Shown here: piece after piece, positions 42,201-64,000 of the stretch
Layout of the letters: every line of letters starts with the position of its first letter
Position numbering within the stretch: position 1 is the stretch's first letter
NCBI GenBank assembly: GCA_965230975.1
Contig: OZ246402.1
Span: forward strand, 573,009-637,008
DNA: 64,000 nucleotides
Source: an uncultured Candidatus Saccharibacteria bacterium
GTDB taxonomy: Bacteria > Patescibacteriota > Dojkabacteria > J137
Reading direction: 5' to 3'
Notes under the pieces: model-generated
Seen by the model: the letters and a program-made list of their open reading frames with translations, nothing else
Database searches by the model: none
Told to the model about the DNA's origin: nothing
Made by a program: the position numbers and the translations under genes

Positions 42201-43359
42201 AGCAGTTGTAAGTTGGTCTACAAACAGAACATCAGATTCTAAAATTCAGTATGGTACGCAAACAGGTGTTTATTTTGAAGAAGAGTTTTCTAAATCTGCA
42301 CAAGTTACAGAGCATGTTATTACTTTAAATAACTTACAACCTGGAACTGTTTATTATTACAGAGCAAAGTGGACAGATGAAGATGGCAATACAGGTATTA
42401 GTGAGGAAAAAACATTTAAAACTGAACCTGCACCAGAAATCTCAAATGTTCAAACAAGTTCAGTAGGTGTTAACTTTGCTTTAGTTAAATTCACATCTGT
42501 TAGAGCTCAGAAAGTTAATATATATTATGGTAAAACAAGCCAATTTGGTGGTTTACAAACTATAAACACATCTATTCAAGAATCTCAAAGTATTTTTCAA
42601 TTAACTGGTTTAGATGATGGCACAAAGTATTATTTTAAAATAAACCCATTTGACTTAGATGGATTTGAGTATGAAGGAACTACACTTGACTTTACAACAG
42701 TTCCAAGACCAAGGGTCTTAGATGTTCAAATAGAAGAGGTAAAAGGCACAGCTCAACCAACTATTAAAGTTAATTGGAATTCAAATACAGAAATTAGCTC
42801 AATTGTTACATTTTACCCGGCTTCTAACTCGGGTTTAAAGCAAGATGTTGTAAATGTTACACCAAAAACTAAACATGAGCTTAAGTTAATATCATTAGAA
42901 GCAGAGACAAGATACGTACTAACTGTTAGAGGTATTGATAAATTAGGAAACGAGGCACTATCTACAGAATATAGCTTTACAACTGCTACAGACTCAAGAC
43001 CTCCAGTAATTTCTAACCTTAATGTAGAGACAGCAATCACAAATTCTACAGAAGTTAATAACGCCCAAATTGTAGTTTCTTGGACTACAGATGAATTATC
43101 TACTAGCCAAGTGTTGTTTGGTGAAGGGATTAATGAAAATGTAACACAAAGTACAACAGAAGATAAAAACTTAAAGTTTAATCATGTAATAGTTATATCT
43201 AACTTAAACCCATCTCAGGTTTATACAATAAGGGCTGTATCTAGAGATAGCCAAAGAAACGAAACTCAATCTGCAGATAATGTAACCGTTACTCCTTCAA
43301 GAACTGATTCTGCACTAGAGCTTATTTTGCAAAATGTATCGGATATTTTTGGAATATAA
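39208..43359 (+). CDS. giant (1383 aa) cell-surface protein: N-terminal membrane anchor/signal, DUF2341 (concanavalin/LamG-like) domain, then multiple fibronectin type III-like repeats
   Basis: Hydrophobic IHLLIILAVSITIFPFVLVV; DUF2341-like block AWSYRKSVNLSNTGSTLSNYQVMVTINT...DCDDLRFT...YYMDP; FN3-like LQPGTVYYYRAKWTDEDGNTG and other repeats; Thr/Ser-rich. Confidence 0.7.
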   Translation: MRMRDPLRKYRTSQRKLKKIHLLIILAVSITIFPFVLVVNTITTRAVDFTWTQTDWSGGVNTNVITSNSNTFVSQSSVDYATPGEIFLGATENWSDGAWSYRKSVNLSNTGSTLSNYQVMVTINTQQLVSLGKLQNDCDDLRFTTSTGTQLSYYMDPDSTCNTASTDFWVKVTSIPAGASVIHMYYGNIAASNVQNAENTFEFFDEFTGSSLDAAKWQTGVGATIPVTITGGYMLPGYVPYNWSGALANGMGVAQNQIKYGVVDDVAVEWKSYMVLGSTLEYGQSGFAFVDSSNLLRAAMYHADTNVNTLNPYYGNFIGTTVGSWTEVNGGTSRFKLVRNGTSVTSYRNNAQQSTGTMTVSPTKITYFKQDYYPNGGSCGGNCYMQNNRIFWVFTRKSAATPPTISSYGVELGQYADTGTLESNIFDTGFSSNWNALTFTKTGSGTATVRIRTGNASDLSDATAFASCNTISTGADISTNNCVTDGHRYLQYQVSLSASGTSPTLTDISISYTPQDSTAPSANSTNVQLTGLSNNDWAKIAPTITWTAGTDAGVGIAGYCVSLDEVPVAGSSSTLNPITSSGKFTGLTDASSLTPTVCPYIVSGNSLDLSTVTGLTLTSGNKYYFSLKAVDLAGNVWTGASNLYQDLVWFRFDNTLPTAPSFISMPSNFISTKDVTITWPTSSGGASDADSGLAGLQYRIGASGTWFGNLRNGNQDLTDLLLNNGTYTTDATVDYPLLQEGVNVIYFRSLDYAGNASLTISGALKLNTIAPQSIQNLTATPTDNNVNSYAFSWDLPSSFSGSADNLTYCYTINTLPTVNTCQFTSAGATNVSADAYASQPGDNTFYVVAKDEAGNINYATAESVTFTYSGSAPGIPQNLDVSDISNKDTQDWKLAVTWNEPTNVGAGISTYRVYRAIGQGLTCANDFGLFSQVSVVQDVSYINTGLSQQYYSYCVRACDSANNCSAVSGSGDELPTGKYTTPATLVAGPTTQQISTRKAVVSWSTNRTSDSKIQYGTQTGVYFEEEFSKSAQVTEHVITLNNLQPGTVYYYRAKWTDEDGNTGISEEKTFKTEPAPEISNVQTSSVGVNFALVKFTSVRAQKVNIYYGKTSQFGGLQTINTSIQESQSIFQLTGLDDGTKYYFKINPFDLDGFEYEGTTLDFTTVPRPRVLDVQIEEVKGTAQPTIKVNWNSNTEISSIVTFYPASNSGLKQDVVNVTPKTKHELKLISLEAETRYVLTVRGIDKLGNEALSTEYSFTTATDSRPPVISNLNVETAITNSTEVNNAQIVVSWTTDELSTSQVLFGEGINENVTQSTTEDKNLKFNHVIVISNLNPSQVYTIRAVSRDSQRNETQSADNVTVTPSRTDSALELILQNVSDIFGI

Positions 43360-43362
43360 ATT

Positions 43363-50006: not shown

Positions 50007-51266
50007 TTAAATTCCTTCGCGTTTCCATACTTGCCAAACAACCTCTTCTTTTTTTAAGTACATTCGTAGACTCTTAAATAATGCCATGTATTCAATCCAG
50101 TCAAGAAAGTAAAATAGAGGCCATGTAAATGGAAACATTAATATAATTCCAATCCTAGGCTTTTCGTTGCTAAACAAGGCTGTAATTACGTAAGATAAAA
50201 ATATAAATAGAATACCAATGCTTATAGATACAAATTCAAGTGTAATTAAGCTGTAAATTAACAATACAGCTATAGCTATTGGCTCAAAAATAAGTTGTAT
50301 TTCTGTAAATAATGAAAATGGTAGTACAAAATAAGATAAAAAGAAATTGTGTGAATCTTCTGTAGAAAAAAACATTGATTTATACTTTTTAAATGTATCT
50401 AATCTTCCTTTTTTCCATCTAATTCTTTGAGAAATTAATCCTTTTACAGTAGAAGCACCTTCTGTATAGCAAACTACATTTTCTGCATAAGTACATTTGT
50501 ATCCAAAGTATCTAAGTCTCATAGACATTTCTATATCTTCGGTTTTGTTTACAGTATCAAAAAGCCCAATTTTATCAAAAACTTCTCTTCTAAAAGATGC
50601 GCAAGCACCTCCAAAAATATATTCAGCACCAAGTACTGCGTGTGTTCTCTTGTTGTAAAATCCAAAGTAGTATTCTAAGTATTGTGCTAGCCCCAACAAG
50701 GTTTTTGTATTGGTTACTTGTACATTCCCAACAACTCCAAATATTGTTTCATCTCTGTAATATTTCACTAAATTACTTATAGAACCATTTTTAAGTTTTG
50801 AATCCGCATCTATAGTTAAAACTATCTCTCCTTTAGCAAGTTGAATTCCAGTATTTAAAGCAACTCCCTTTCCACCATTTGTCTGATATTTGTAGGTGAT
50901 TTTTTCACCTAGCTCTTTATCTTTATTTTTTAAATCAGAGATGTATTTTTTCATTATTTTATCTGAGTTGTCTGTAGATCCATCGTTAACAACTATTATT
51001 TGTACATTCGAATATCCGTTATATAAGGCTGATTCAACTGTTTTTAAAATTCCAACTTCTTCATTCCAAGCAGGTATTACTACTGACACTAAATAAGGTT
51101 CTGGGTTTTCTAATGAACCATTTTTTTTATATTGCTTTATTAATCTTAATTTTTCTTTAATTGTGTACCACGGAGCTATTACTAAAAAGAGATAATTTTT
51201 AAGTAATACTAGGCTTACAAATAATGCTATTAATGATGTGAATATTATATAGATTGTATTTTCCAT
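50007..51266 (-). CDS. processive family-2 glycosyltransferase (PgaC / cellulose / chitin-synthase-like, membrane-embedded)
   Basis: VSVVIPAWNEE, DGSTDNS, TIDADS (D,D,D motifs), QRIRWKKG (QxxRW); N-terminal and C-terminal TM helices. Confidence 0.8.
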   Translation of the reverse strand: MENTIYIIFTSLIALFVSLVLLKNYLFLVIAPWYTIKEKLRLIKQYKKNGSLENPEPYLVSVVIPAWNEEVGILKTVESALYNGYSNVQIIVVNDGSTDNSDKIMKKYISDLKNKDKELGEKITYKYQTNGGKGVALNTGIQLAKGEIVLTIDADSKLKNGSISNLVKYYRDETIFGVVGNVQVTNTKTLLGLAQYLEYYFGFYNKRTHAVLGAEYIFGGACASFRREVFDKIGLFDTVNKTEDIEMSMRLRYFGYKCTYAENVVCYTEGASTVKGLISQRIRWKKGRLDTFKKYKSMFFSTEDSHNFFLSYFVLPFSLFTEIQLIFEPIAIAVLLIYSLITLEFVSISIGILFIFLSYVITALFSNEKPRIGIILMFPFTWPLFYFLDWIEYMALFKSLRMYLKKEEVVWQVWKREGI

Positions 51267-53871: not shown

Positions 53872-54972
53872 ATGTCAATTAATACTGATTTAGAACAAAG
53901 TAATTCGGTTAGACTAATAAGTAGCCAAATTAAAGAGCGTTCTTCAAATGTGGTTTTATACTCTGATTCAGATTTTAAATCTGCCCACAGTATTTATTGC
54001 CCTATAGGATTTGAGTCTGTTGCTGACTATTATGTTGCTCCTTACATGCGTAAGTTTGCAGACATTATCTTTGGTGTCGCACAAAATCCTTCTTATGGAT
54101 ATTCCCCTGAAAAGAATGAAATACATATTTACTTTTCAGAAATGGATTTATATAAAGGAATTTTAGCTTTGTTAGCTAATAATACTCGAGCATTAGAGGG
54201 TATTCTTAAAGCTCTAGAAATAGATCATACTCAAATTGAAGATACTATTTTAAGATACGTAAGGCTTCTCAATAGAATTACCTTTGATAATAAATATAAT
54301 TTGGATAATCAAGATAAACTTTTACTTGAAAGGATGGGTGCTTTTTTTAGTGGCCATCCGGATTTTATAGAATTGATTTTTGGTAATTCTGTAAATTACT
54401 CTGTTTATCATGAGGTAAATCACGCCAGGTTAGATGATTTGTATTTAAATGTAGCATATATTCCAAGATATAATTCTAGTTCTGCAAGAAATGCGATGCA
54501 AGTCAGTTATATAGGGTTTATGGATAAGTTTAATGAAATTGAGACTTATTTAATTGAAAATAATAACTTAACAGATTCCTATATTACTATTCTTCAACTA
54601 ACTAATCATGGTATGTTTAAGATTTTGTTAAGGGATATCTATTCTTATCCAGATAAGATAGATGCATTGTATACAAGTTATCTGGGTTCTTTACAGGAGC
54701 TGTTTAATTTTATGCAATTCGCAATTCTAAAAAAAGATTTAGCTAAAGATGAATTACAAAAGCAATTGATTAGATATTTTTGTGCATATATTGCAGATGT
54801 AATGTTTTTATTCCCTGATAATGCTATTGTTAGAAGATACTTGGATTTGGCAAATTCTTTAGATGCAAATCAAATAAATTTGTTTTTGAAAGAGTTAGTC
54901 GCCCTAATGAATAAGGAGTCGTTTGATAAGTTTGTAGATACTCATTTTAGATGGCTACAAAAAGAGGATTAA
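53872..54972 (+). CDS. hypothetical protein
   Basis: 366-aa ORF. Confidence 0.5.
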   Translation: MSINTDLEQSNSVRLISSQIKERSSNVVLYSDSDFKSAHSIYCPIGFESVADYYVAPYMRKFADIIFGVAQNPSYGYSPEKNEIHIYFSEMDLYKGILALLANNTRALEGILKALEIDHTQIEDTILRYVRLLNRITFDNKYNLDNQDKLLLERMGAFFSGHPDFIELIFGNSVNYSVYHEVNHARLDDLYLNVAYIPRYNSSSARNAMQVSYIGFMDKFNEIETYLIENNNLTDSYITILQLTNHGMFKILLRDIYSYPDKIDALYTSYLGSLQELFNFMQFAILKKDLAKDELQKQLIRYFCAYIADVMFLFPDNAIVRRYLDLANSLDANQINLFLKELVALMNKESFDKFVDTHFRWLQKED

Positions 54973-55457
54973 TTTTCGCTATACTGATCAAGTTCCTCCT
55001 GTGTTATAGAAAACATTTGTCTTATCATATCTAGTTGAGATCTTAATACCATAAAATTTATACTGTTAGATTCCATTTCTTCAGCACTTAATATTAAAGG
55101 CATTTCTGGGTTATGTTCTTCGTAATCTGTTCTAATTTCTCCGATATGTGGTATCTTACCTATTTGTTCTATGGTTTTTAAAATTCCACCTGCTAGCCAT
55201 TGTGAGCAGTTTAACGGGCTATTTACATATTCTTCGAGGCTTAAACCTGACCTGATATTTGGATATATTCCAAGTTCTTTAAGATGGTTTAAGACTAGGT
55301 ATATTTTGTTTAGAAGTATTTCTTTATCCATTGGTCTTAAAGGTAGTGTTGGGTCCTCACTATAACTAGTAATGTATGCCATTACTTCTACACATAAATC
55401 TCTTAGCTCTTTACTTTTGTGGTCGCTATTAAAGAAATATTTATCAGGTTTGAACAT
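54969..55457 (-). CDS. hypothetical protein
   Basis: 162-aa ORF; 4-nt convergent overlap with the previous gene. Confidence 0.45.
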   Translation of the reverse strand: MFKPDKYFFNSDHKSKELRDLCVEVMAYITSYSEDPTLPLRPMDKEILLNKIYLVLNHLKELGIYPNIRSGLSLEEYVNSPLNCSQWLAGGILKTIEQIGKIPHIGEIRTDYEEHNPEMPLILSAEEMESNSINFMVLRSQLDMIRQMFSITQEELDQYSEN

Positions 55458-55537
55458 GAATTTATTCTCAAAAAATATTGTGTGGATTATATACTATTTT
55501 TCTGAAGTTTAAAGAATTGTACATTTAATTGGCAGAT

Positions 55538-55582
55538 CTCGTAACATTCGACTACATTTCATTTGTCTCATTAACTACGGAG
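55538..55582 (+). repeat. 45-nt intergenic direct repeat, copy 1 (ctcgtaacattcgactacatttcatttgtctcattaactacggag)
   Basis: 44/45 identical to 57210-57254; about 80 nt upstream of the minus-strand gene 54969-55457. Confidence 0.8.
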
Positions 55583-55709
55583 AGCTTCGGATGTTTTTCC
55601 AATTTGACCCGTGGCAAGAAATATTATTGATTGACCAATAGATATTAATTCTACACTCTATAGATTTATTAATAGTGTGTTATGATCTATCATATTTCAT
55701 TCTCAAAGT

Positions 55710-56783
55710 ATGAAACAAATGGTTCATTTAAATGAAAACATGCGTTCTAGTAGAGGCATTGTTAGAATGTTTAATCAAATACCCACACAGGAATTATTAG
55801 AAGCTCTCTCGAAATATCCTGATTTAATACCACCTGGTGCAGAGATTGTAGCAACCAATTTTGGACAGATAAATTTGGTCTACATTGTTAGAGTTCCAGG
55901 TATAAAGATCCCTAAACGAGTAATTATTATACCCAGGCCAGATAAAGAGACAAATCAGGTTGAGCAAGACACAATGGAAGATTTTTACGGTTTAAAAGAA
56001 GTGTATGAATCTTTTGTGGCATTTAAATCTGAAGGTAAGATTCAAGCTACAGCTACCATACCTATACCTAGACCTTTAGGACTTATTTGCTCTCAATTTT
56101 TAACTGTAATGGTTAATGAATTCGCGGGCAGTCAAGAAGGTTATTTTGGTTCTGAAGAAACCTTTCCTGCTTTTGTTTCGGGAGGAACAGGTGGTAATAC
56201 ATATTTAGGTTTATCCTGGATAGTGAACCCAAGTTTCACTAATGAGACAGACTTATTAAGACGTCAGACTACAAGTATTGCTAATAGGTTGACTCATCAT
56301 CTGGGTAACAATGGAATTGATAGTGAATATAGTAGTATCTCTCATGCGATAGCTATCTCTCATATTGAAGCTCTAGTCAAAGTTTGGTTACTTACAGGAA
56401 AATATCCTCTAAAATACTGTCCTTCTGCTGGAGATGGTGTTATGTTAAATAAAGATTATGATTCAAAAAGTCATCCTGACATAGCTAATGTGGATATTAA
56501 TTTAATTACATTAAGAGGCGGACTATCTCGGGTAGTAGATTCGCAAGCTTTTATTCAATTCTTAAGAGGACTAAAGGATAAGCCAATCGTTTATTGCGAT
56601 TTTAAAGGTTCGGATTTAGTCATAGTTCAACCTAATAATGCTAAATTATATGAATACTGGGGAGGAGAGGAAGTTAGTGTTTTTAGTGATAAACAAATTA
56701 GAGAAGGTATTGAAAGGGCATTTATGAATTACTTTGGAAACGATTCTTTGCATTATCTGCAAAGAATTTTGGCTGAAGTATAA
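55710..56783 (+). CDS. hypothetical protein
   Basis: 357-aa ORF. Confidence 0.5.
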   Translation: MKQMVHLNENMRSSRGIVRMFNQIPTQELLEALSKYPDLIPPGAEIVATNFGQINLVYIVRVPGIKIPKRVIIIPRPDKETNQVEQDTMEDFYGLKEVYESFVAFKSEGKIQATATIPIPRPLGLICSQFLTVMVNEFAGSQEGYFGSEETFPAFVSGGTGGNTYLGLSWIVNPSFTNETDLLRRQTTSIANRLTHHLGNNGIDSEYSSISHAIAISHIEALVKVWLLTGKYPLKYCPSAGDGVMLNKDYDSKSHPDIANVDINLITLRGGLSRVVDSQAFIQFLRGLKDKPIVYCDFKGSDLVIVQPNNAKLYEYWGGEEVSVFSDKQIREGIERAFMNYFGNDSLHYLQRILAEV

Positions 56784-56808
56784 AAAGCTCTATCAGTTTT
56801 TAATTTTA

Positions 56809-57108
56809 TTAAGCTTCTCTGTCGATTTCTTTATTTCCTAGTTCAGATTCTTGAATGTTTTTAATATCAACAGTTCTTCTAGCTAAGTACAGAGAACCAA
56901 CGCTATGTTGAAGCATTTTAATTAAACCATCAGGAGTATGGCTGCTATCGATTTCACCCTGCCCGTTAATTCCTACATAAATATTCCCATCAGTTTGAAC
57001 AAAATATACTGTATTCTTCTCTATAGCTAGTTTTTTAGCATTCGCAAGTCTTTCTTCATATGTTTCAGGAACAGTTTGATCTATTAAATCCTCAATGTGG
57101 TAGTTCAT
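56809..57108 (-). CDS. hypothetical protein
   Basis: 99-aa ORF. Confidence 0.4.
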   Translation of the reverse strand: MNYHIEDLIDQTVPETYEERLANAKKLAIEKNTVYFVQTDGNIYVGINGQGEIDSSHTPDGLIKMLQHSVGSLYLARRTVDIKNIQESELGNKEIDREA

Positions 57109-57209
57109 TTATATAGGTTTAAAATTTAATAACTGATTATAACGTTGACAAATTATGTGGTCAATATTAGTTTCGAATTTAAGAACGGAGGAGACCAAGT
57201 AGGTCGCTC

Positions 57210-57254
57210 CTCGTAACATTCGACTACATATCATTTGTCTCATTAACTACGGAG
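57210..57254 (+). repeat. 45-nt intergenic direct repeat, copy 2; its flanks (ctcctcgta ... tacggaggag) can pair to close a stem
   Basis: 44/45 identical to copy 1; about 100 nt upstream of the minus-strand gene 56809-57108. Confidence 0.8.
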
Positions 57255-57500
57255 GAGACAGGATTCACCCATCCGGGCATCTCAATTTTCTAGAATTCGC
57301 CAAATAGTTTTAAGTAGCTCATTAAGAAAATTAGAGACGAACCTTGTTCTCATCCTGGTTTTCTTTCTTTGCTCAAATTTGCCACAATATACAATTGTGT
57401 CAAACCTGAGAACGGGACACACGGGTCTGGAACCGTAGTCACCACTAAGATTATATCCAAAAATGAGACATTTGAGACATATAAAAAAGGAGTATCAAAT

Positions 57501-58211
57501 TTATGATTCTGGAGTATCGCCAACCAGTAATCTTAATTGGGAGATAATTTGGTCCAATTCCCCATCTTTATTAGAAATATAATTAGAAAATAAATGTCTT
57601 TTTGCAAGAATAGCTCGTGCATTTCTAATTCGACCCTGAAATTCAACCTCACTTTCTCCTCGATCTCTTAGTGAAAGTCTACTTGAAATTACCTCTAAAG
57701 CTTTTTCTACTCCATTCTCACCTTCAATTTCTTCAGTAGTAATAGGACTTATAAAGCAATCATAAATTGGAATATTAAGTCTCTTGAAGATATCTTTCAA
57801 AAGTAGAGCTCCATCAACGTCAATATCTAAGATTAAACGGTTTCCATTGTTCAAAGCCACTAGTATATCATCTAAGCTTGTTCCATAGTATCCTTGCCCA
57901 TATTTACTCCATTCTAATAGCTTATTTTTATTTACTTGGTCTAGGAAGTCACTTTCATCTAAGGAATGATAATTAGATTCATTAGGATTCATACTTTTAG
58001 TCGTCGTTCTATTAACTTTAGTATATCCTCGATTGCTTGCCATAAGTTTTTCAATTATAGAACTTTTACCAACTCCATTAGGGCCAGTAATCAAAATAAC
58101 TTGAAAGTTATGTTCACCTAGGCGTTCAGATAAAGTTAGAAAATTAATCTTATCTACAGTTTGGTTCTGTCCCCATTTATAATTTCTATCTAAGTCCATA
58201 ATTATCATCAA
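57501..58211 (-). CDS. guanylate kinase-like P-loop nucleotide kinase
   Basis: Walker A ILITGPNGVGKSS, NRTTTK (cf. Gmk SATTR), ...LEWSKYGQGYYGTS (Gmk Y-G-T-S). Confidence 0.6.
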   Translation of the reverse strand: MMIIMDLDRNYKWGQNQTVDKINFLTLSERLGEHNFQVILITGPNGVGKSSIIEKLMASNRGYTKVNRTTTKSMNPNESNYHSLDESDFLDQVNKNKLLEWSKYGQGYYGTSLDDILVALNNGNRLILDIDVDGALLLKDIFKRLNIPIYDCFISPITTEEIEGENGVEKALEVISSRLSLRDRGESEVEFQGRIRNARAILAKRHLFSNYISNKDGELDQIISQLRLLVGDTPES

Positions 58212-59115
58212 TTAAATGTAATCTGCGTTCAATTTCTTCTATATCAATAGGAAACTCTATCATCCCTTCGTGCTCAACACTTATACTCGAGAGAGCATTT
58301 GCAAATTCAATAGATTCTTTTAATGCTGCAGATTGATTTAATTTAAATATAAAACCTGCTCTCCAAACATCTCCTGCTCCAGTTGGATCTATAGAATTTG
58401 TACGATAGGTTGGAAAGATTTGTTCTAATTCAGCAGTAACTAATTTGACTCCGCCTGCTCCCAAGGTTTCAATTACTACTTTTTTATTGTCAGTTAATTC
58501 TTTGGGAGACATCTTCAATCTTGACTGAATTCTTTCCCATTCGGCATGATTAGCAATTACAATACTAGAATTAGTTATACCACTTAATAATTCCTCGTCA
58601 GATAAATTATGTAATATCATTCCTGGATCATACATATAAGTACATTTTGATTCGATTAATATTCTTTGAACTGTGAGAAATAAACTTTTATCAATAGGTG
58701 AGAGTATTGTAAAGTCAGTTGATAAGAAAGGTGGAAGTAATTCCGGATCAATTAGTCTAGATAGTCTATCCTCAAATCTTAACCAGTCTTGGTGACCATC
58801 AGAGTATGTATTTACTTCTCCTTCTGAAGTAGAAGATCTTTCAAATACAAATAAATTTGCAACATCAACACCTACTTCAGCTAAAGTATTTCTCAGAACT
58901 TCTCCATTAGATCCTATCGCGCCAATTAAACTTATTTTATTTTCTGATAGGCGAGCTAAAGTATGAGCTATTGTGAATCCAGTGCCTCCTAGAAAAATTT
59001 CTGAAGATATATTTCTGTCTAAATAGTTATTTTTTACAAATCCAACTGAACCAATAATATTTATATGTGCCATACTATTTTTTATCACCAAATATCCTTC
59101 TGAATTCTTTATCAA
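58186..59115 (-). CDS. PfkB-family carbohydrate / nucleoside kinase
   Basis: C-terminal DPTGAGDVWRAGF (PfkB signature 2, GAGD); ribokinase-like fold length. Confidence 0.7.
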   Translation of the reverse strand: MIKNSEGYLVIKNSMAHINIIGSVGFVKNNYLDRNISSEIFLGGTGFTIAHTLARLSENKISLIGAIGSNGEVLRNTLAEVGVDVANLFVFERSSTSEGEVNTYSDGHQDWLRFEDRLSRLIDPELLPPFLSTDFTILSPIDKSLFLTVQRILIESKCTYMYDPGMILHNLSDEELLSGITNSSIVIANHAEWERIQSRLKMSPKELTDNKKVVIETLGAGGVKLVTAELEQIFPTYRTNSIDPTGAGDVWRAGFIFKLNQSAALKESIEFANALSSISVEHEGMIEFPIDIEEIERRLHLIDDNYGLR

Positions 59116-59662
59116 CTAACTTTCTTATTAATTCGGCTTTGCTAACTTCAAGATTTGTAGAGAGTTGTTCCATTTGTTTAAGTGTATTTGTTTTTAAAAC
59201 TACATTAAATCTTCTCTTTGGGGGATCAAGTTCGTCGATGTATTCAATAATCACATCTTCTAATTTATCTAAGTCCTTATATCTTCTAACGGTAACGAAG
59301 TCTTCTCCATACGAAAGAAGTGTTTCTGGAAATTCATTATATTTATCCTCATGAACAAGACAAAGTACAGGAATTTTATTTTCTAATGCTAATATTGTCT
59401 GAAAGAATACAGTTCTTGATTTATCAGTGAAGTATGCAACAGCAAAATCAATAGATCTAATTTGTTTTTGCGTCCCATCTACAATCGAATCTGTTTTATT
59501 CCTAACAGTTTTCTTGATAGCTGGTGGATATTCGTCAACAAATGCTGGATTATACATAGATACTCCTTGTGCACGAATTATATTTGCTATTTTTCTATAT
59601 ATTTCTATATTCAGATCTATATTTTTTATTGAAGCAAATAATCCAAATCTTTTAGCTTTCAT
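59075..59662 (-). CDS. two-domain protein: N-terminal Rossmann-like domain (possibly nucleoside 2-deoxyribosyltransferase / SLOG-like) fused to a C-terminal ribbon-helix-helix DNA-binding domain
   Basis: C-terminus RRFNVVLKTNTLKQMEQLSTNLEVSKAELIRKLVDKEF fits the RHH (CopG/Arc) pattern; the N-terminal domain assignment is weak. Confidence 0.45.
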   Translation of the reverse strand: MKAKRFGLFASIKNIDLNIEIYRKIANIIRAQGVSMYNPAFVDEYPPAIKKTVRNKTDSIVDGTQKQIRSIDFAVAYFTDKSRTVFFQTILALENKIPVLCLVHEDKYNEFPETLLSYGEDFVTVRRYKDLDKLEDVIIEYIDELDPPKRRFNVVLKTNTLKQMEQLSTNLEVSKAELIRKLVDKEFRRIFGDKK

Positions 59663-60453
59663 AGTTTATAAAAATATTTAAGAACAATATTAAATAATCT
59701 TTTAGGTAAGTGACATTTACAAAATGCCAGAACTTTATCCCTATAGCTAACAAACTGAGATCTATTAGATTCAAAAATTATTGACTCTACGAGCTTAGCT
59801 ACATCTTCAGCTTTATTTCTGTCACTAAAAAAGTTTCTAAATCGTATTTGCCATTCCTCATATAGACTTTTGTATATACTATTTTCTATATTAATTGTTT
59901 CAATTATATTTTTGCCAAAACTACTTTTCACAGCACCTAAATAAATATTAGCTACTTTTATTTCAGATTCCTCGTTTAGAATGTCCAGAGTTTTACTAAA
60001 TGCCAGTTTAGATATTTCGTAATAGCCAAATGTAGGTATGTCTAATAATGAGCCTAAGGCTGCTAAATTTATTACTATTCCTTGGTTACTACGCAATTTG
60101 GGAATCAGAGATTTTAATAATTCTGTTGGACCGAAATAATTTATTTCAAATTGCTTACGAATATTCTCTATACTTAAGTCTTCGATAGTCCCTCTAAAAC
60201 CAACACCCGCATTGTTTATAAATATGTCTACTTGTTCATCTTTAAGTAAATTTATAACTTTCGGTATGCTATTAGAGTTACCTAAATCAACTTCAATAAA
60301 TTTATAATTGGACGGTTGTGAATCTATATTATTTCTACCTAATCCGATTATCTCCACATCATTTCTACTAGACAGCAAGGAAACAATAGAGTATCCAATG
60401 CCTGAACTGACTCCTGTGATAATGATTTTTTTCCTTTTATTTGATTGATTCAT
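59659..60453 (-). CDS. short-chain dehydrogenase/reductase (SDR)
   Basis: TGVSSGIGYSI (TGxxxGIG) cofactor motif, NNAG, and Y-x-x-x-K (YEISKLA). Confidence 0.75.
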   Translation of the reverse strand: MNQSNKRKKIIITGVSSGIGYSIVSLLSSRNDVEIIGLGRNNIDSQPSNYKFIEVDLGNSNSIPKVINLLKDEQVDIFINNAGVGFRGTIEDLSIENIRKQFEINYFGPTELLKSLIPKLRSNQGIVINLAALGSLLDIPTFGYYEISKLAFSKTLDILNEESEIKVANIYLGAVKSSFGKNIIETINIENSIYKSLYEEWQIRFRNFFSDRNKAEDVAKLVESIIFESNRSQFVSYRDKVLAFCKCHLPKRLFNIVLKYFYKL

Positions 60454-61381
60454 CTTTAGCTAAACTTAGTAATAATCCAGTTGAAATATTGTTGTTACTT
60501 GGAAAAATTCTATTTATTTTTAAATATTCGCAGATTGCAAATATATTCATAAGCGCCTTATCTGCTGCCCACATATAATAAGGTTCGTCTGGGTAAAGAG
60601 GCATTCTATCTTCATAACTTAAACTAATTAGTTTCTCGTAAAGAGGTTTTAATTCTTCAACAGTTGTTTCGAACTTATGAGCACCAGTATTGTCAGAAGG
60701 TATTAGATTAAGATTCATTGCTTTAAAGAAATCTATAATGTTTGTACTTCCATAAACTAACAGTTCAGGTTGATTCTTTCCCTCAGTTAGAGATTTTAAC
60801 TGTTCTTTGACATAATCATAAGCTGCATTTACTTCCTCTTCACTAGGATGATGTGTTTTAGAGAATCTTTCTTGTAGATAATAAGTCCCTGTTTTAAATA
60901 AGAATGTTTGGAATATTTCTTCATCTTTTCCAATAACGACCTGAACACTTCCTCCTCCAATATCTGAAACTGCAATCACTTTACCGGGAAAATCTTTAGA
61001 AACTGAATGAAAGTAGACTTTTGCTTCATCGTCATGAGAAAGTGTTATTAATGAAATCTCAGTCTCTTGTTTTATCTTTTTTAAAACCTCATCTGCATTT
61101 TTTGCCTTTCGAATAGCTTCTGTGGTAACTCCAACATATTTGTTAACTCCAAATTCATTCATTTTTTCTTTGAAAAGTTTAAGAGCCTCAATTGTTTTAT
61201 CAATAGATTTCTCAATGATTGTATTATCAGTTTTATCAAGATCTCTTCCAAGAACAGTTAATTGTTTATCTTTATAAACTAATTCTGAATTGTAATTCGA
61301 ATCAAATTCTCTAATTTCGAACTTTGATTTTAATGTTCCAACATCTATCACAGCAACTTTTTTCTTTTTATTTTCTGACAT
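60437..61381 (-). CDS. Ppx/GppA family phosphatase (ASKHA superfamily)
   Basis: VAVIDVGTLKSKFEI (phosphate-1), SDIGGGSVQVVIG (GGGS phosphate-2). Confidence 0.65.
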   Translation of the reverse strand: MSENKKKKVAVIDVGTLKSKFEIREFDSNYNSELVYKDKQLTVLGRDLDKTDNTIIEKSIDKTIEALKLFKEKMNEFGVNKYVGVTTEAIRKAKNADEVLKKIKQETEISLITLSHDDEAKVYFHSVSKDFPGKVIAVSDIGGGSVQVVIGKDEEIFQTFLFKTGTYYLQERFSKTHHPSEEEVNAAYDYVKEQLKSLTEGKNQPELLVYGSTNIIDFFKAMNLNLIPSDNTGAHKFETTVEELKPLYEKLISLSYEDRMPLYPDEPYYMWAADKALMNIFAICEYLKINRIFPSNNNISTGLLLSLAKDESIK

Positions 61382-62666
61382 AAAAATAATTTTTTAATAA
61401 GTAATAATTTTGAGATAGATTAGATCGTAAAAAGCTACCACTAACAATATTAACGGTTTTTACATCTTCAATATCTTTTATTGTTTCTAAATCTACACTT
61501 CTATCTATTGTAATCGAAACAGGTCCCTTATATGCGTAGTTAATCATTTTGTGAGCTCGATTAAAATTAGATACTCGTTCAGTGTGATTCTTTGATTGAA
61601 GACAGACTAATGTTTCGTCTTTAATAAATTTTTCCCAAGGAAATAACTCATCAATTAAATCTTTAACGTCAAGGCTATAGTTTATTTTTTCAATAGTTAA
61701 TTTCTCGGTTTCAAATTTATCATAATTATCTCGGTTAATATGAAGAAAGATCTTACTACTTATATCTGTTTCTATATCTAAAAATTTGATCATTTGTTCA
61801 TACGATTCTTCTGATTTTGCAAATATGTGATAGTGAACATTAATGTGCGATGATTTCTCCCTTATATTTTTTATCAATTCTAATGTTAGATTAAGATTAG
61901 TGGATTGTTCGACAAATCCATCGGTGATATCTATATGTAAAAAATCAATTTTAGCTAATATTGCCTCATCGAGTGTATCAATATTTTGCTGAACAATATC
62001 TTGTATGGCATATCCAACTTGGTGATTTGAGATAATACTTTCTTTGTATAAAAGTTTAGCAATTGTGGACATTTTATTAGCATCTGTATTTTCAAATTCT
62101 GTTTTAGTAGCGGCTTTTATATTAGATTGTATATCAAAGCCATAAATATCAAGATCGATATACTTATAAAGATTTTCAGCTGCAATTCCACCTGCGAGAA
62201 AGATATTTTTTATATTGAGACTTTTAACTAGAGTATTTACTTTATCAAAACCTATTTCTTTTCCTGTACCTCCAACAAAGGATTTATCTAAAATATAGTT
62301 ATCTGCGTTTTTATTAGGTTTATCACTTTCAGATATAAGTACTTGAAATATTTCAACACTATCTCCATAGACACCTTTTAGATTGTCAATAATCTCATTT
62401 GAGTTAGAGTAATGTAGTTGAACAGCATCAAACTCCATGGAATTAATTAATTCTATAAGTGTCTCTAATTTTGTTTCCTTAGTAACCAAAACAGATTTGG
62501 TATCGGGATAAAACATTTTTAATTCCTTTATACAAATCTTGATCAGATCTAATCTTTTAAAATCATTTTCTGAAATAAGGTGAAACCCAAGATAATCTAT
62601 ACCTAGTTTTCCTGCAGTTCTTGTTTCGAAAATATTTTTTATATCGCAAAATTTAATTTTCTTCAT
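61368..62666 (-). CDS. fusion of a phosphoribosylanthranilate isomerase-like (TrpF-fold) domain and a ribulose-phosphate 3-epimerase-like TIM-barrel domain
   Basis: N-half YILDKSFVGGTGKEIGFD...FLAGGIAAENL (TrpF-like); C-half AILAKIDFLHIDITDGFV...VSGSFL (RPE-like HVDVMDGHFV / VAGSAIF). Confidence 0.5.
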   Translation of the reverse strand: MKKIKFCDIKNIFETRTAGKLGIDYLGFHLISENDFKRLDLIKICIKELKMFYPDTKSVLVTKETKLETLIELINSMEFDAVQLHYSNSNEIIDNLKGVYGDSVEIFQVLISESDKPNKNADNYILDKSFVGGTGKEIGFDKVNTLVKSLNIKNIFLAGGIAAENLYKYIDLDIYGFDIQSNIKAATKTEFENTDANKMSTIAKLLYKESIISNHQVGYAIQDIVQQNIDTLDEAILAKIDFLHIDITDGFVEQSTNLNLTLELIKNIREKSSHINVHYHIFAKSEESYEQMIKFLDIETDISSKIFLHINRDNYDKFETEKLTIEKINYSLDVKDLIDELFPWEKFIKDETLVCLQSKNHTERVSNFNRAHKMINYAYKGPVSITIDRSVDLETIKDIEDVKTVNIVSGSFLRSNLSQNYYLLKNYFYVRK

Positions 62667-63352
62667 AGTAGATTATTTATAACATTCAACATGTCTGATT
62701 TGTAATCAGCTAATATAAACTTTGACCCAGCATTTAGTGCAAATTCCCTATCAATTAGATCATTATCACCAATATAATAATCCATCTTTACTCCAGAAAC
62801 ACTGTTCAGCTTATAAGCACCAAAACTATCAGGCTTATCTTTTAATATTTGACCTTCATATAAATCTTCTTCACCAATAATTACATCAAAAAAATCAATT
62901 AGATTGGCTTTAATTAATAGTGAAGTCACAATAGTCTTTCTAGTTGAACTAACAATTCCAATCTTTATATTTTTACTTTTAAGTGCAATTAATGCTGGAG
63001 TCAGATTCAGAGCAATTTGCTCTAATAAAGAATAGGTTTCTTCTTCAAGAATTGCTTTTATAGTTGCACTTTCTTTTAAACCCATAATTCTTTTTACTAT
63101 TTCATCTTCATTTTTTTCATTAAAATAAATACTGATCTGTTCTTTCATTCGAAAGTTGTTATCTAGAAATCCTTTCTTAATTCTTCGATAACTGTCAAAT
63201 CTTTCTCGGAGATTTGGTTCATAAGGAAGTAAATCTTCCAATAGAAAATTTATCCTCAAATCTTTTAAAGCAGATTCCCATCCTCTCTTATGAAAGCTGG
63301 TAGATTTTGCTATTGTTCCATCGAAATCAAATACAATAAACATATTAATCAA
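62663..63352 (-). CDS. HAD-superfamily phosphatase
   Basis: N-terminal IVFDFDGTIA (motif I), C-terminal YYIGDNDLIDREFALNAG (motif IV region). Confidence 0.7.
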   Translation of the reverse strand: MINMFIVFDFDGTIAKSTSFHKRGWESALKDLRINFLLEDLLPYEPNLRERFDSYRRIKKGFLDNNFRMKEQISIYFNEKNEDEIVKRIMGLKESATIKAILEEETYSLLEQIALNLTPALIALKSKNIKIGIVSSTRKTIVTSLLIKANLIDFFDVIIGEEDLYEGQILKDKPDSFGAYKLNSVSGVKMDYYIGDNDLIDREFALNAGSKFILADYKSDMLNVINNLL

Positions 63353-64000
63353 TATAATTTTTTAATAAACTAATTATTTTTTGTTTCTCTTTATCAAAAA
63401 CTCCTTGACGATTAGTATAACTAAATTTTTTATAAGTACCTGTGAAATTACTTGTGTAAGTAACTATTGCCTTTTCTAATACTTCGGGATTTACTCCTCC
63501 ATGATATGGTCTGATGAGATGATGATACCTATTAGTATTTTTAAATGATACAACAGCTAGAAAAGCTTCTTTAATATTTTTTGGATACAAATCTAAGAAG
63601 GTTTGAATTGTCTTTCCAGTTGTGGTCGAATCATCTAGGATTAAGACCTTATCAAAGCCTTGAAAATAGTTCTCATTATAAAAAGGTGGTAAAGAGTCAT
63701 CTAGATCTTGAACATAATTTGAACTTCCAGTTGAGTAGTTTGAAAGTGAGCAAATAATCTGACTTTCTAATGATTTATTTATGGTCATTCTAAAAGCATT
63801 AACAGCAAACGGAAGTTCCATTCCACCATATGCGAAACTCACAAGAAGAGTGTTAGATGGAATATATTGATCCGATACAACTTTAGCAAAATTTATAATT
63901 TTGTAAGGATGGCTACATTCTCTTATCTTCCTAATAATGTTGTTTTCCCAATGCTCACTAAATAGAGATCGAGAAGAGATCTCACTACAAAATCTCTTGT
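63345..64000 (-). CDS. type I phosphoribosyltransferase; the reading frame stays open upstream to the window edge, so the 5' end may lie outside the window (track start is GTG 63842)
   Basis: PRPP-binding motif VLILDDSTTTGKT; manual translation of 63843-64000 in the same frame shows no stop. Confidence 0.6.
   Translation of the reverse strand, partial: KRFCSEISSRSLFSEHWENNIIRKIRECSHPYKIINFAKVVSDQYIPSNTLLVSFAYGGMELPFAVNAFRMTINKSLESQIICSLSNYSTGSSNYVQDLDDSLPPFYNENYFQGFDKVLILDDSTTTGKTIQTFLDLYPKNIKEAFLAVVSFKNTNRYHHLIRPYHGGVNPEVLEKAIVTYTSNFTGTYKKFSYTNRQGVFDKEKQKIISLLKNYID

Follow-up and report, generated by a model that had tools for sequence, protein, structure and literature searches.

Phosphoribosyltransferases (PRTases) are paired with TrpF/HisA-type isomerases in the couples TrpD–TrpF and HisG–HisA. 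A two-step module of a PRTase-fold enzyme and a HAD phosphatase has been shown for Cj1432 of C. jejuni and Bcs3 of H. influenzae (PMC12096443), and the angustmycin cluster (PMC12648386) combines an RPE-family 3-epimerase (AgmD) with a pyrophosphokinase and an APRT-like transferase, along with a phosphatase, an AMP phosphoribohydrolase and a repressor. The window, i.e. the whole 64,000-nt stretch of DNA analyzed here, ends in a minus-strand gene cluster best read as the 3′ part (seven and a half genes) of a conserved, self-regulating, Patescibacteria-specific accessory cluster. Its PRTase-like protein and TrpF-like isomerase, encoded in one operon, mirror TrpD–TrpF and HisG–HisA. We tentatively favor, with slightly less than even confidence, a PRPP-dependent N-ribosylation pathway reminiscent of how tryptophan and histidine synthesis begin and governed by a predicted repressor, u195, encoded within the cluster. 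A modified ribosyl or nucleotide-derived metabolite is a plausible product.

All eight minus-strand ORFs that the first-pass annotation described as a tightly packed operon are present at the coordinates it gave (ORF listing with translations). In transcription order they encode a PRTase-like protein (PRT427), a HAD phosphatase, a TrpF-like/RPE-like fusion (TIM2), a Ppx/GppA-like protein, a short-chain dehydrogenase/reductase (SDR), u195, a PfkB kinase and a guanylate-kinase-like (GK-like) protein. With longest-ORF starts, neighbors overlap by 8, 4, 14, 17, 4, 41 and 26 nt, reproducing the 4–41 nt range reported earlier. Public gene calls on a 100%-identical contig (L001) place starts at later ATGs (PfkB 58186–59073, GK 57501–58199, HAD 62663–63343), turning the 41-nt overlap into a 1-nt gap and reducing the 26-nt overlap to 14 nt. 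Within the operon, promoter-like sites show no enrichment (29 vs 38.8 ± 6.2 in shuffles) and the only terminator-like match lies within the first gene, so a single transcription unit fits. The window edge truncates this unit, with the 5′ end of the PRT427 gene, the promoter and the operator all lying past position 64000.

Across Patescibacteria the neighborhood is strongly kept. The order PRT427–HAD–TIM2–PPX–SDR–u195 recurs in at least 11 distinct loci from Saccharibacteria, WWE3, Gribaldobacteria and unclassified Patescibacteria, at 28–86% protein identity, and this six-gene core is invariant. The usual companions are a GT2 glycosyltransferase and an APH-like kinase; both lie just outside the window, together with an RfaE-II-like nucleotidyltransferase and an ASCH-like protein. 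Two loci (L015 and L033) carry the core alone, without GT2, APH, PfkB or GK. The packing of the proposed eight-gene operon is real, whereas the invariant module comprises six genes, with PfkB and GK optional and further linked genes beyond the window. The cluster is also rare (∼40 fusion proteins among 5.8 billion clusters), shows no composition anomaly, and is flanked by restriction-modification, transposase and phage-repressor-like genes. It is an accessory cluster, judged by its rarity and its mobile/restriction-modification neighborhood.

The family assignments made earlier all stand. Six families score above the Pfam gathering threshold (Guanylate_kin, PfkB, adh_short, Ppx-GppA, PRAI, and HAD_2), and three matches fall below it, namely RPE-like (18.7 vs 21.1 bits), RHH_3 (17.2 vs 21.6) and Pribosyltran (14.7 vs 26.3), for which additional evidence is given below. 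None of the cluster proteins reaches an NCBIfam equivalog cut-off, including those for Hpt, Gmk, RbsK, TrpF, and Rpe, in agreement with the first-pass view that the operon maps onto no canonical pathway; clear salvage orthologues are lacking. The same annotation took nucleotide salvage, expected where de novo synthesis is lacking, as its simplest reading; such a housekeeping role does not suit a very rare, scattered cluster usually linked to GT2 and APH genes amid restriction-modification and mobile genes.

The window holds the C-terminal 217 codons of PRT427 (63345–64000). Read from L001 (8039–9322, window-equivalent 63345–64628), the full protein has 427 residues, consisting of a helical N-domain (residues 1–235) with no known relative found and an HGPRT-like type I PRTase domain (residues 240–427) with the PRPP loop VLILDDSTTTGKT (motif LILDDSxTTGKT). 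HGPRTs are the best Foldseek matches of its AlphaFold model (pLDDT 82) in both the PDB and a viral library, and a profile search against the PDB gives an HPRT match (E = 0.05). The PRPP-loop motif and the HGPRT matches back its assignment as a putative PRTase. Its family has only 15 members, every one inside this cluster. The HAD protein (62663–63352) follows PRT427 in every locus and belongs to the β-phosphoglucomutase-like subfamily of HAD-IA phosphatases (Pfam HAD_2, 1e-16; NCBIfam PGMB-YQAB, 1e-12, under its cut-off), with motif I (FDFDGT) and motifs II to IV intact.

This adjacent PRTase-fold/HAD pair is the same module as in Cj1432 and Bcs3 (PMC12096443), which raises the possibility of CroT/CrpP-type ribofuranosylation of a surface glycan or lipid, with PRT427 moving ribose 5-phosphate from PRPP to a hydroxyl of a GT2-built glycan, HAD dephosphorylating it, and the remaining enzymes tailoring or activating building blocks. 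The linked GT2, choline-kinase-like kinase and RfaE-II/TagD-like nucleotidyltransferase would suit such a role, as would the variable-island position typical of surface-glycan loci. We nevertheless consider it very unlikely: the cores of L015 and L033 lack any glycosyltransferase, PRT427 has HGPRTs as its best structural matches with Bcs3/Cj1432-type enzymes absent among the matches listed, the cluster has no transporter, flippase or polymerase as a conserved companion, and the TrpF/RPE fusion, the PPX-like protein and an NMP-type sensor would be left over.

TIM2 (61368–62666; 432 aa) is a fusion of two barrels. Its N-terminal half is a TrpF-like isomerase (Pfam PRAI, 1e-14) that, aligned to T. 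maritima TrpF (1dl3), retains Cys7 and Asp126 as C7 and D127 together with the GGTG and AGGI phosphate sites; in a 22-sequence alignment, these catalytic and phosphate-site residues show little or no variation. An RPE-like barrel (Pfam RPE, 1e-3, under cut-off) with H244-x-D246, H280 and D388 forms the C-terminal half. The H-x-D and H residues align to metal-site residues of rice RPE (1h1y; PDB profile E = 0.3), and D388 might, at a guess, be the fourth metal ligand. Among 1.84 billion representatives, phmmer with this domain found only 19 relatives, all fusions, and no canonical RPE. Its scores are weak, and it is the aligned metal-site residues that support a provisional RPE-like assignment.

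Under the favored N-ribosylation pathway, PRT427 would use PRPP to ribosylate an amine nitrogen, which might belong to a guanine-type nucleotide, giving an N-(5-phosphoribosyl) compound. The TrpF-like barrel would then open the ribose and, by Amadori rearrangement, produce a 1-amino-1-deoxy-ribulose 5-phosphate, the RPE-like barrel fused to it would epimerize C3, the SDR would reduce the C2 ketone, and HAD would remove the 5-phosphate, yielding an N-linked rearranged pentulose or pentitol compound. The fusion of TrpF-like and RPE-like barrels is chemically logical because the product of the Amadori step is, in formal terms, an analogue of ribulose 5-phosphate. The SDR (59659–60453), a classical member of its family (Pfam adh_short, 3e-21; generic NCBIfam SDR matches only, all under cut-off), bears TGxxxGxG, NNAG and YxxxK in its translation and is predicted to be a ketoreductase. 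Catalytic motifs are intact in HAD, SDR and PfkB, and PRT427 has the PRPP loop and an HGPRT-like fold. HGPRT-type enzymes, however, usually ribosylate a ring nitrogen, giving a product incapable of Amadori rearrangement, and this preference tells against the scheme.

The Ppx/GppA-like protein (60437–61381) also counts against it, since the proposed pathway gives no account of its role despite the highest protein conservation in the cluster. It is a short two-domain ASKHA protein (Pfam Ppx-GppA, 2e-32; closest PDB match Aquifex PPX/GppA 1t6c, 1e-25) whose subfamily is confined to the cluster in a metagenome scan. In the alignment, E119 and D140-x-GGGS are retained and the Glu usual after GGGS is replaced by an invariant Gln147, a change that leaves its predicted catalytic activity in doubt. 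It might shorten a polyphosphate on the acceptor or help to drive the reaction forward.

The two kinases are absent from most loci. PfkB (58186–59115, with a likely true start at the ATG at 59073) is of the ribose/nucleoside-kinase type (Pfam PfkB, 3e-25; DPTGAGD motif), its closest PDB matches being M. tuberculosis adenosine kinase, the MJ0406 nucleoside kinase and ribokinases; it occurs in some loci only, and L007 has a 68-aa remnant. The GK-like protein (57501–58211; Pfam Guanylate_kin, 6e-16; PDB 1gky, 4e-14) scores 91 bits against the NCBIfam TIGR03263 cut-off of 160, matches PhnN weakly, and bears an additional 35-aa N-terminus with a WGQNQ motif. By alignment, it retains the guanine-contact positions (yeast E69, YG(S/T), and D100) and lacks the GMP-phosphate residues Arg38, Arg41 and Glu44. 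In the version of the N-ribosylation pathway found in the window, both would probably act as suppliers, from nucleoside to NMP to NDP or from ribose phosphate towards PRPP; tailoring, activation or transfer of the product would be the probable role of GT2, the APH-like kinase, the RfaE-II-like nucleotidyltransferase and the ASCH-like protein.

In a variant cluster (L016/L027), the PPX, PRAI-like and RPE-like parts are still present; its PRTase is replaced by an AMP/SAH-nucleosidase-like domain fused to the RPE-like barrel, and it additionally has a PLP decarboxylase and an aminotransferase. The enzymes particular to this variant make amines or handle N-ribosyl bonds, which counts for the N-ribosylation pathway. 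The same nucleosidase-like fusion could release ribose 5-phosphate, as in a nucleotide-to-pentose-phosphate salvage shunt where PfkB and the GK-like protein phosphorylate nucleosides, the PRTase interconverts or splits nucleotides in either direction, and the TIM2 fusion serves as ribose-5-phosphate isomerase and ribulose-phosphate 3-epimerase feeding transketolase. The families are all of nucleotide or pentose-phosphate type, a transketolase is encoded in the window (11677–13581), the sensor domain has an NMP-binding fold, and the TrpF-like barrel could alternatively do mere ribose 5-phosphate isomerization. Yet that barrel retains the TrpF catalytic Cys/Asp pair, and no TrpF is known to isomerize ribose 5-phosphate. 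Extreme rarity, patchiness and genomic-island association are unlike a housekeeping function, and with PfkB and GK missing from most loci, no equivalog match for Hpt, Gmk, RbsK, TrpF or Rpe, and no role left for the SDR, the PPX-like protein, GT2 or the APH-like kinase, the shunt appears unlikely.

The optional kinases could also serve the synthesis of a rare-sugar nucleoside of the angustmycin style. Here the fusion would first give an unusual sugar phosphate through isomerization and 3-epimerization, PfkB with the PhnN-like GK or the host Prs would pyrophosphorylate it, PRT427 would add the base, HAD would dephosphorylate the result to a nucleoside analogue and the SDR would tailor the sugar. 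The enzyme classes are those of the angustmycin cluster (PMC12648386), the GK-like protein weakly matches the ribose-1,5-bisphosphokinase PhnN, PfkB matches ribose-1-phosphate kinases, and the nearby APH-like kinase could confer self-resistance. We regard this route as quite unlikely, given that most loci lack PfkB and GK, that the angustmycin pathway has no counterpart of the TrpF-like barrel, and that a pentulose 5-phosphate gives no furanose, so a hexose or heptose would be needed and nothing points to either.

u195 (59075–59662; 195 aa) belongs to a family of 54 members, the complete ones all 171–199 aa long. Its N-domain (residues 1–145; AlphaFold pLDDT 75) adopts a DNPH1/Rcl/MilB-like nucleoside-2-deoxyribosyltransferase (NDT) fold (Foldseek top matches DNPH1, MilB, BcmB, and NDT; E = 3e-6), in which the SIK phosphate loop is kept and Q88 aligns on the catalytic Glu of DNPH1 (hhalign, with a rat DNPH1 sequence entered by hand). 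With its nucleophile missing, this domain cannot supply free base, a further point against the angustmycin-style route. The C-terminal domain is a CopG-like ribbon-helix-helix (RHH; CopG match, E = 0.03).

Each transcription unit of the cluster, including a GT2 unit with a separate promoter (L007) and the inverted SDR–u195 units of L015 and L033, has its promoter overlapped by a 19-bp palindrome, TTATACA-N5-TGTATAA. In 313,659 nt there are 16 copies where 0.07 would be expected, 15 of the 16 at cluster promoters, and the palindrome was not found in the u195-less variant cluster. Its right half-site doubles as the −10 box, so part of its conservation is promoter conservation. The substitution of Gln for the catalytic Glu, together with the palindrome at the promoters, supports u195 as a ligand-sensing autorepressor, with operator binding deduced from co-occurrence, and with it the earlier suggestion that the RHH fusion may regulate the operon. 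The RHH domain would bind the palindrome as a repressor, and the catalytically dead N-glycosidase-like domain would sense a ribose-5-phosphate N-glycoside (an NMP-like ligand).

The flanks contain Type I restriction-modification, Fic, ResIII, N6_N4 methylase, IS1595 transposase and KilA-N genes. A faint SMODS match was also seen there. NDT-like and nucleotide-modifying domains are present in some known defense systems, and with such flanks (the SMODS match included), the cluster could be imagined to make or deplete a nucleotide-derived signal or toxin in anti-phage defense or counter-defense. This is highly improbable: PADLOC models match nothing beyond a generic P-loop, the cluster has no recognizable effector, nuclease or membrane toxin as a conserved partner, and it was not found in viral contigs. 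A dead NDT-like domain joined to a DNA-binding domain that has an operator of its own points to ordinary operon control.

The cluster is closed by a 392-nt intergenic region (57109–57500) with no Rfam match, which carries a strong promoter-like site serving the downstream gene (56809–57108). Two public assemblies of this sequence, independent of each other, both break inside the region at position 57327.

The eight minus-strand ORFs that the first-pass annotation had placed at 57501–64000 were found there as described. In transcription order, they encode a phosphoribosyltransferase (PRTase)-like protein (PRT427; 63345 to the window edge, with no start codon inside the window), a HAD phosphatase (62663–63352, with all four HAD motifs), a 432-aa fusion of a TrpF-like and an RPE-like barrel (TIM2; 61368–62666), a Ppx/GppA-like protein (PPX; 60437–61381), an SDR oxidoreductase (59659–60453, with TGxxxGxG, NNAG and YxxxK motifs), a 195-aa protein with a C-terminal ribbon-helix-helix (RHH) segment (u195), a PfkB kinase (58186–59115) and a guanylate-kinase-like (GK-like) kinase (57501–58211). 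The overlaps of 4–41 nt claimed for these genes hold with the longest-ORF starts (8, 4, 14, 17, 4, 41 and 26 nt) but not with the later ATG starts of the Logan gene calls (PfkB 59073, GK-like 58199, HAD 63343), with which the two largest overlaps become a 1-nt gap and 14 nt. Under either set of starts, the packing leaves no space in which an internal promoter could lie. The operon shows no excess of promoter-like sites (29 vs 38.8 ± 6.2 in shuffled sequences), and no convincing or significant terminator was found inside it. Its GC content (0.29–0.30) equals that of the remainder of the window, with no anomaly that would mark recent transfer. A structured RNA or riboswitch was rejected: a permissive Rfam scan of 56000–64000 came back empty, and no tRNA lies close by.

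Window positions 57327–64000 recur with 100% identity in two independent Logan assemblies. Both stop at 57327, inside a 392-nt intergenic region downstream of the cluster (57109–57500) that has no Rfam match and may be a strain-variable junction. This region contains a direct repeat, TTAA(G/C)(A/T)ACGGAGGAGAC, at 57179–57198 and 57243–57262, and a near-consensus promoter (TTGACC-17-TATAAT, 57164–57136) that serves a 99-aa gene at 56809–57108. Four ORFs in 53872–57108 belong to no Pfam family.

We examined whether the gene order is conserved in relatives by mapping genes in seven genome loci, obtained in a one-genome-per-species scan and all from Patescibacteria MAGs (mostly Saccharibacteria), and in 28 metagenome loci found with a PPX profile. 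The order PRT427-HAD-TIM2-PPX-SDR-u195 is kept wherever a locus extends far enough for it to be seen, down to 28–32% identity; in the two most divergent loci (L015 and L033), the SDR-u195 pair alone is inverted. Most loci have a GT2 glycosyltransferase and an APH/choline-kinase-like protein next to the cluster, and an RfaE-domain-II-like nucleotidyltransferase and an ASCH-type protein (GxKTxExR motif) accompany it in some. PfkB and GK-like genes occur in a minority, PfkB being a 68-aa remnant in locus L007. Because accessory genes and PfkB/GK-like vary by locus, what the window holds is a single, elaborated form of the cluster that is truncated on the 5' side; beyond the window edge, an identical contig (L001) continues with the rest of PRT427, an ASCH-like gene, a nucleotidyltransferase on the opposite strand, an APH-like kinase and a GT2. 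The simple reading of the first-pass annotation, a nucleoside/nucleotide salvage operon, is not supported in the form of canonical purine salvage, since none of the operon's proteins reaches the cut-off of a curated NCBIfam equivalog and the family amounts to ∼40–54 sequence clusters, with 19 representatives among 1.84 billion. TIM2 homologues number ∼40 among 5.8 billion sequence clusters, their named sources being WWE3 and Gribaldobacteria, and family searches found no PRT427 or u195 relatives outside the cluster.

The N-terminal half of TIM2 aligns its C7 and D127 with the catalytic Cys7 and Asp126 of Thermotoga maritima TrpF. D127 and the GGTG and AGGI phosphate loops are invariant in the alignment of fusion sequences, and C7 is at least 90% conserved, so that this half is predicted to retain the catalytic Cys (base), the Asp (acid) and the C-terminal phosphate-binding loops of TrpF. 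It falls far short of the TrpF equivalogs (best NCBIfam scores of 66.5 bits vs a cut-off of 380 and 57 vs 212), and no trp genes occur in any locus examined. The C-terminal half scores below the Pfam gathering threshold for the RPE family (18.7 vs 21.1 bits). A phmmer search of 1.84 billion representatives (E ≤ 1e-3) returned 19 proteins, none of them a canonical RPE, and every full-length match was a fusion. In the weak family match, H244-x-D246 and H280 align with the corresponding H-x-D and H residues of the rice enzyme (1h1y), and the profile also matches the AlsE structure 3ct7. An invariant D388, a candidate fourth metal ligand, is followed by Arg ("DR") where "DGG" would be expected, and no alignment could be made for it. 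As far as these tools can tell, both the TrpF-like/RPE-like fusion and its RPE-like barrel family are undescribed.

PRT427 is 427 aa long, as read from the identical contig, and its AlphaFold model (pLDDT 82) consists of a helical N-domain followed by a C-terminal PRTase domain. In Foldseek searches with the model, the latter finds HGPRTs as best matches (probability 0.99–1.0), and its PRPP loop, LILDDSxTTG(K/R)T, is conserved and classical. At the profile level PRT427 matches HPRT at E 0.05, with Pfam and NCBIfam giving a weak, sub-threshold PRTase-domain match or nothing. On the basis of the modeled core fold and the PRPP-binding loop, PRT427 is thus a predicted type I PRTase. In a hand alignment anchored on the PRPP loop, the catalytic Asp of 6-oxopurine PRTases (D137 in human numbering) is replaced by Thr. 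The N-domain has no structural relative in the PDB or a viral library, where matches are confined to the PRTase domain, and is undescribed as far as these tools can tell.

PPX is a clear member of its superfamily (Pfam Ppx-GppA, 113 bits vs a gathering score of 27), and its residues 7–261 match the short Aquifex PPX/GppA 1t6c at 1e-25, covering the two-domain ASKHA core. Measured against the catalytic and metal-binding set of the Escherichia coli enzyme (E121, D143, GGxS and E150), PPX keeps E119 and D140-x-GGGS, and the set is incomplete because the Glu after GGGS is replaced by Gln147 in all ten orthologues. The exopolyphosphatase model TIGR03706 gives 142 bits vs a cut-off of 307. In metagenome loci, proteins with at least 53% identity to PPX lie almost always within the cluster, and this Glu-to-Gln subfamily is, again within the reach of these tools, undescribed. 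NADAR enzymes hydrolyse N-ribosyl bonds in ribosylamino-pyrimidine phosphates and ADP-ribosylated guanine. A PPX-like paralogue of 50% identity located outside the cluster (L034, 1792–4340) adjoins a NADAR-domain protein and an ASCH-like relative of the 183-aa protein found in the cluster. Remote PPX-like paralogues (L034 and L039) were discarded as a functional clue, their neighbours (NADAR, Dus, radical SAM, Maf and HAD proteins) being uninformative.

The PfkB protein belongs to its family by Pfam score (89.7 vs 25.8 bits) and by its DPTGAGD and LGGTG motifs, and in the PDB it is closest to Mycobacterium tuberculosis adenosine kinase, an archaeal nucleoside kinase and ribokinases. The GK-like kinase has yeast guanylate kinase as its best PDB match and, in yeast numbering, keeps the P-loop and the guanine contacts E69, YG(S/T) and D100. 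It lacks the GMP-phosphate residues Arg38, Arg41 and Glu44 (the positions read T, K and a gap), the guanylate kinase equivalog TIGR03263 scores 91 bits vs a cut-off of 160, and an additional N-terminal segment carries a conserved WGQNQ motif. Judged from sequence, the catalytic motifs of the PRTase, TrpF-like, HAD, SDR and PfkB parts are intact.

By sequence alone, the N-domain of u195 could not be identified, and the protein as a whole gave a weak RHH match. Its AlphaFold model (pLDDT 75) matches DNPH1/Rcl, the CMP N-glycosidases MilB and BcmB, and nucleoside 2-deoxyribosyltransferases (E ∼1e-5 to 1e-6). Alignment by hhalign to a provisional rat DNPH1 reference sequence sets the near-invariant Gln88 against the catalytic Glu of GVGYELG, matches SIK with the phosphate loop SIR, and pairs D72 with the Asp of the active site. 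The domain shares with DNPH1/Rcl, MilB and BcmB the fold, the Ser and a basic residue of the phosphate loop, and the Asp on the strand of the active site, but unlike DNPH1 it has Gly for the catalytic Tyr, and the Glu nucleophile (GxGxE motif) is absent despite the fold match. Because Gln88 replaces Glu while SIK and D72 are kept, the N-domain appears to be a nucleotide-binding pseudo-enzyme. The C-terminal 45 residues align with CopG (E 0.03 over residues 148–180), the Pfam RHH_3 score lying below its cut-off (17.2 vs 21.6). No other fusion of a DNPH1-like fold to an RHH domain turned up in CopG-matching, family and Foldseek searches, and the u195 family is confined to the cluster.

When the 200-nt stretches preceding PRT427 were aligned between loci, a 19-bp palindrome emerged, TTATAC(A/C)-N5-(T)GTATAA, located 11–86 nt before the PRT427 start in 11 of 11 distinct loci that hold the region, save for its spacing in L031, where it overlaps the first possible start of the ORF. 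This candidate u195 operator (TTATACATTCTTTGTATAA) lies between a -35-like hexamer and a -10 box, the latter being the right half of the palindrome (TGTATAAT). Further copies precede GT2 in L007 and the inverted SDR-u195 unit in L015 and L033. In the Saccharibacteria MAG locus L010, tandem palindromes occur before PRT427 at 8004–8022 and 8038–8056, 34 nt apart from start to start; because the second overlaps the annotated start of PRT427, the true start is probably further downstream. In total, 16 sites were found vs 0.07 expected in 313 659 nt of non-redundant loci, 15 of them at cluster promoters, including that of the window's own cluster at window-equivalent 64715–64733, beyond the window edge. 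The sixteenth, at 62033–62051 (TAATACTTTCTTTGTATAA, 2 mismatches), is the sole near-match inside the window; it falls within the TIM2 gene at the boundary of the two barrels, is not kept in orthologues and is probably due to chance.

As the only conserved DNA-binding protein in the cluster, u195 is the obvious candidate repressor, and we infer that it acts at this palindrome. Like CopG-type RHH repressors, it would combine an RHH C-terminus with a palindromic candidate operator that overlaps the promoter it is predicted to regulate. The suggestion in the first-pass annotation that the RHH fusion is a ligand-sensing regulator of the operon is strengthened by the DNPH1-like domain with Gln88, the CopG match and the palindrome at 15 cluster promoters. 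Such a pseudo-DNPH1-RHH repressor with a candidate operator has, as far as we could determine with these tools, not been described. We are confident that the genes form a conserved, autoregulated accessory cluster rather than canonical salvage.

A variant of the cluster in a Shapirobacteria MAG (JBAYUY010000001.1; L016 2091–13799, identical to L027) encodes a PPX 61% identical to that of the window. Its gene order is NUDIX, HIT, AAA_33 kinase, DUF4037, PPX, NUDIX, PLP decarboxylase, NTP_transf_2, a 673-aa fusion of a nucleosidase/phosphorylase-like domain to an RPE-like barrel, a 393-aa protein with a PRAI domain and an extra domain, and aminotransferase. PRT427, HAD, SDR and u195 are absent from it, as is the palindrome. 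Since the standard and variant clusters both keep PPX-like, PRAI-like and RPE-like proteins, these form an invariant trio, which thus appears in both versions to be joined to an enzyme making or breaking an N-ribosyl bond. The nucleosidase fusion, together with a full-length transketolase gene in the window (11677–13581), would suit a salvage shunt in which TIM2 replaces Rpi and Rpe non-orthologously, an arrangement that would still be unusual if true; the rarity of the cluster, the SDR and the optional kinases do not fit, and we consider this shunt unlikely. We class the cluster with biosynthetic operons for small molecules or sugar nucleotides that have a repressor of their own pathway.

In tryptophan and histidine synthesis, PRPP is joined to nitrogen and an Amadori rearrangement then opens the ribosylamine. 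To our knowledge, a PRTase and a TrpF/HisA-type isomerase in one operon are known solely from these two pathways. The biosynthetic operon proposed here resembles their early steps (TrpD-TrpF; HisG, HisE/I and HisA) in pairing a PRPP-dependent PRTase with a (beta/alpha)8 Amadori isomerase, in the TrpF catalytic Cys, Asp and phosphate loops kept in the fusion, and possibly in PPX as a counterpart of the HisE phosphohydrolase step. It differs in that its PRTase is type I and HGPRT-like, whereas TrpD is type III and HisG type IV, in the absence of other trp or his genes, in an isomerase far below the TrpF equivalog cut-offs and fused to an RPE-like barrel, and in the accompanying SDR and HAD phosphatase. 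Coformycin and pentostatin are made by a PenA/HisG-like PRTase, a His-pathway Amadori step, the SDR CofA/PenB and a phosphatase. Their route is similar in adding PRPP to a purine nucleotide, passing through an Amadori-rearranged intermediate and ending with SDR reduction and dephosphorylation (in part after PMC12648386). Unlike it, the window cluster lacks HisG-like and SAICAR-synthetase-like enzymes and gives no indication of diazepine ring formation.

From these parallels, we infer a chemistry running from PRPP through N-ribosylation, Amadori rearrangement, 3-epimerisation and ketoreduction to dephosphorylation, a scheme that as a whole we regard as plausible, if tentative. The TrpF-like half would carry out the Amadori rearrangement to a 1-amino-1-deoxy-ribulose 5-phosphate. 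This product being a ribulose 5-phosphate analogue, an RPE-like 3-epimerase would be a logical fusion partner. The classical SDR may reduce the C2 ketone and the sugar- or polyol-phosphate-type HAD may remove the 5-phosphate, leaving an N-linked pentulose or pentitol compound. PPX may trim a nucleoside polyphosphate acceptor in the manner of HisE. That the acceptor is a guanine nucleotide is speculative and draws on the HGPRT-like fold, the guanine contacts of the GK-like kinase and the relationship to GppA. PfkB and the GK-like kinase would probably supply substrate, and GT2, the APH-like kinase and the nucleotidyltransferase would probably tailor, activate or transfer the product. The fuller reading, which we hold with considerable reserve, is an undescribed pathway that converts a PRPP-derived N-(5-phosphoribosyl)amine, the amine possibly lying on a guanine nucleotide or a small amine, by Amadori rearrangement, fused-barrel 3-epimerisation, ketoreduction and dephosphorylation into a new amino-pentulose/pentitol metabolite or surface decoration, under a repressor of a new class in which a catalytically dead DNPH1-like nucleotide sensor is fused to an RHH domain. 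The individual enzyme superfamilies are all known; within the reach of these tools, their combination is not described, and we found no literature describing a cluster of this kind.

The extended cluster recalls ADP-heptose synthesis (GmhA, HldE, GmhB and HldD) in having an isomerase, PfkB, HAD, RfaE-domain-II-like nucleotidyltransferase, SDR and glycosyltransferase. Unlike that pathway, its isomerase is TrpF-like rather than SIS, its SDR is classical rather than an extended epimerase, neither PfkB nor the nucleotidyltransferase is present in every locus, and the PRTase and PPX have no counterpart. The Streptomyces cluster AgmA-F for angustmycin/psicofuranine, whose product is a nucleoside with an unusual sugar, comprises an RPE-family 3-epimerase, a type I PRTase-like transferase, a phosphatase, an NMP phosphoribohydrolase-type protein and a repressor (PMC12648386). 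A rare-sugar nucleoside pathway of this type would account for the four or five enzyme classes common to both clusters (RPE-family epimerase, PRTase-like, phosphatase, NMP-hydrolase-type protein and repressor), but it is quite unlikely, as it offers no role for the TrpF-like enzyme. The Agm cluster lacks TrpF-like, Ppx/GppA-like and SDR members, the window cluster lacks a PRPP-synthetase-like pyrophosphokinase and the AgmF dehydratase, its NDT-like protein is predicted to be inactive and to serve as a regulator domain, and no sequence orthology between the two clusters is detectable.

PRPP-dependent ribofuranosyltransferase and HAD phosphatase modules have been shown in Haemophilus influenzae Bcs3 (CroT/CrpP) and Campylobacter jejuni Cj1432 (PMC12096443), and the window cluster likewise has a HAD phosphatase directly after a PRTase-fold enzyme, with a glycosyltransferase nearby. 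PRPP-dependent ribofuranosylation of a glycan could explain this pair; we judge it very unlikely, given that the six-gene core can stand without a glycosyltransferase. Moreover, the Bcs3 and Cj1432 modules are domains of large capsule polymerases acting on glycan hydroxyls, whereas those of the window are separate proteins and its PRTase domain is HGPRT-like.

Flanking genes vary by locus and include Type I restriction-modification genes, a methylase, Fic, ResIII, an IS1595 transposase, KilA-N, a CI/LexA-like S24 repressor and a faint SMODS match. The cluster behaves as an accessory island. In L003, Type I HsdR fragments (EcoR124_C domains) flank it on both sides (775–1833 and 15577–15957), and an intact 1021-aa HsdR homologue adjoins it in L010 (14113–17178), which suggests that it inserts into, or recombines with, restriction-modification islands. 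Upstream of the extended cluster, L001 1–5018 encodes an S24 CI/LexA-like repressor, a DUF1508 protein, a product faintly matching SMODS (a CBASS-type nucleotidyltransferase) and several family-less proteins, one of which (169 aa) is also conserved beside GT2 in L003. A phage origin was rejected, as two IMG/VR scans (PPX and fusion profiles) found no relative. A defense system was likewise set aside as the primary reading, and we consider it highly improbable: PADLOC returned generic P-loop matches for the GK-like kinase and nothing for the nine remaining proteins.

The genomes of Patescibacteria are tiny, and these bacteria are assumed to hold little metabolism of their own. A conserved, self-regulated cluster of 6–13 genes with nucleotide and pentose-phosphate folds therefore hints that they make a specialised product, which could be nucleoside-like or a surface decoration relevant to host-cell attachment or phage resistance. 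Three features of the cluster lend themselves to direct testing: the TrpF-like/RPE-like fusion, which would extend Amadori chemistry past amino-acid biosynthesis, the Ppx/GppA subfamily with an altered metal site, and the putative dead N-glycosidase repressor with its 19-bp candidate operator, a potential nucleotide-analogue biosensor.

Elsewhere in the window, we noted a UmuC-like Y-family polymerase with DUF4113 (25570–26829), a 1383-aa surface protein (DUF2341/fibronectin-III) with a MacB-type ABC transporter fusion after it (39208–45633), and a 419-aa processive-type GT2 resembling chitin synthase (50007–51266).
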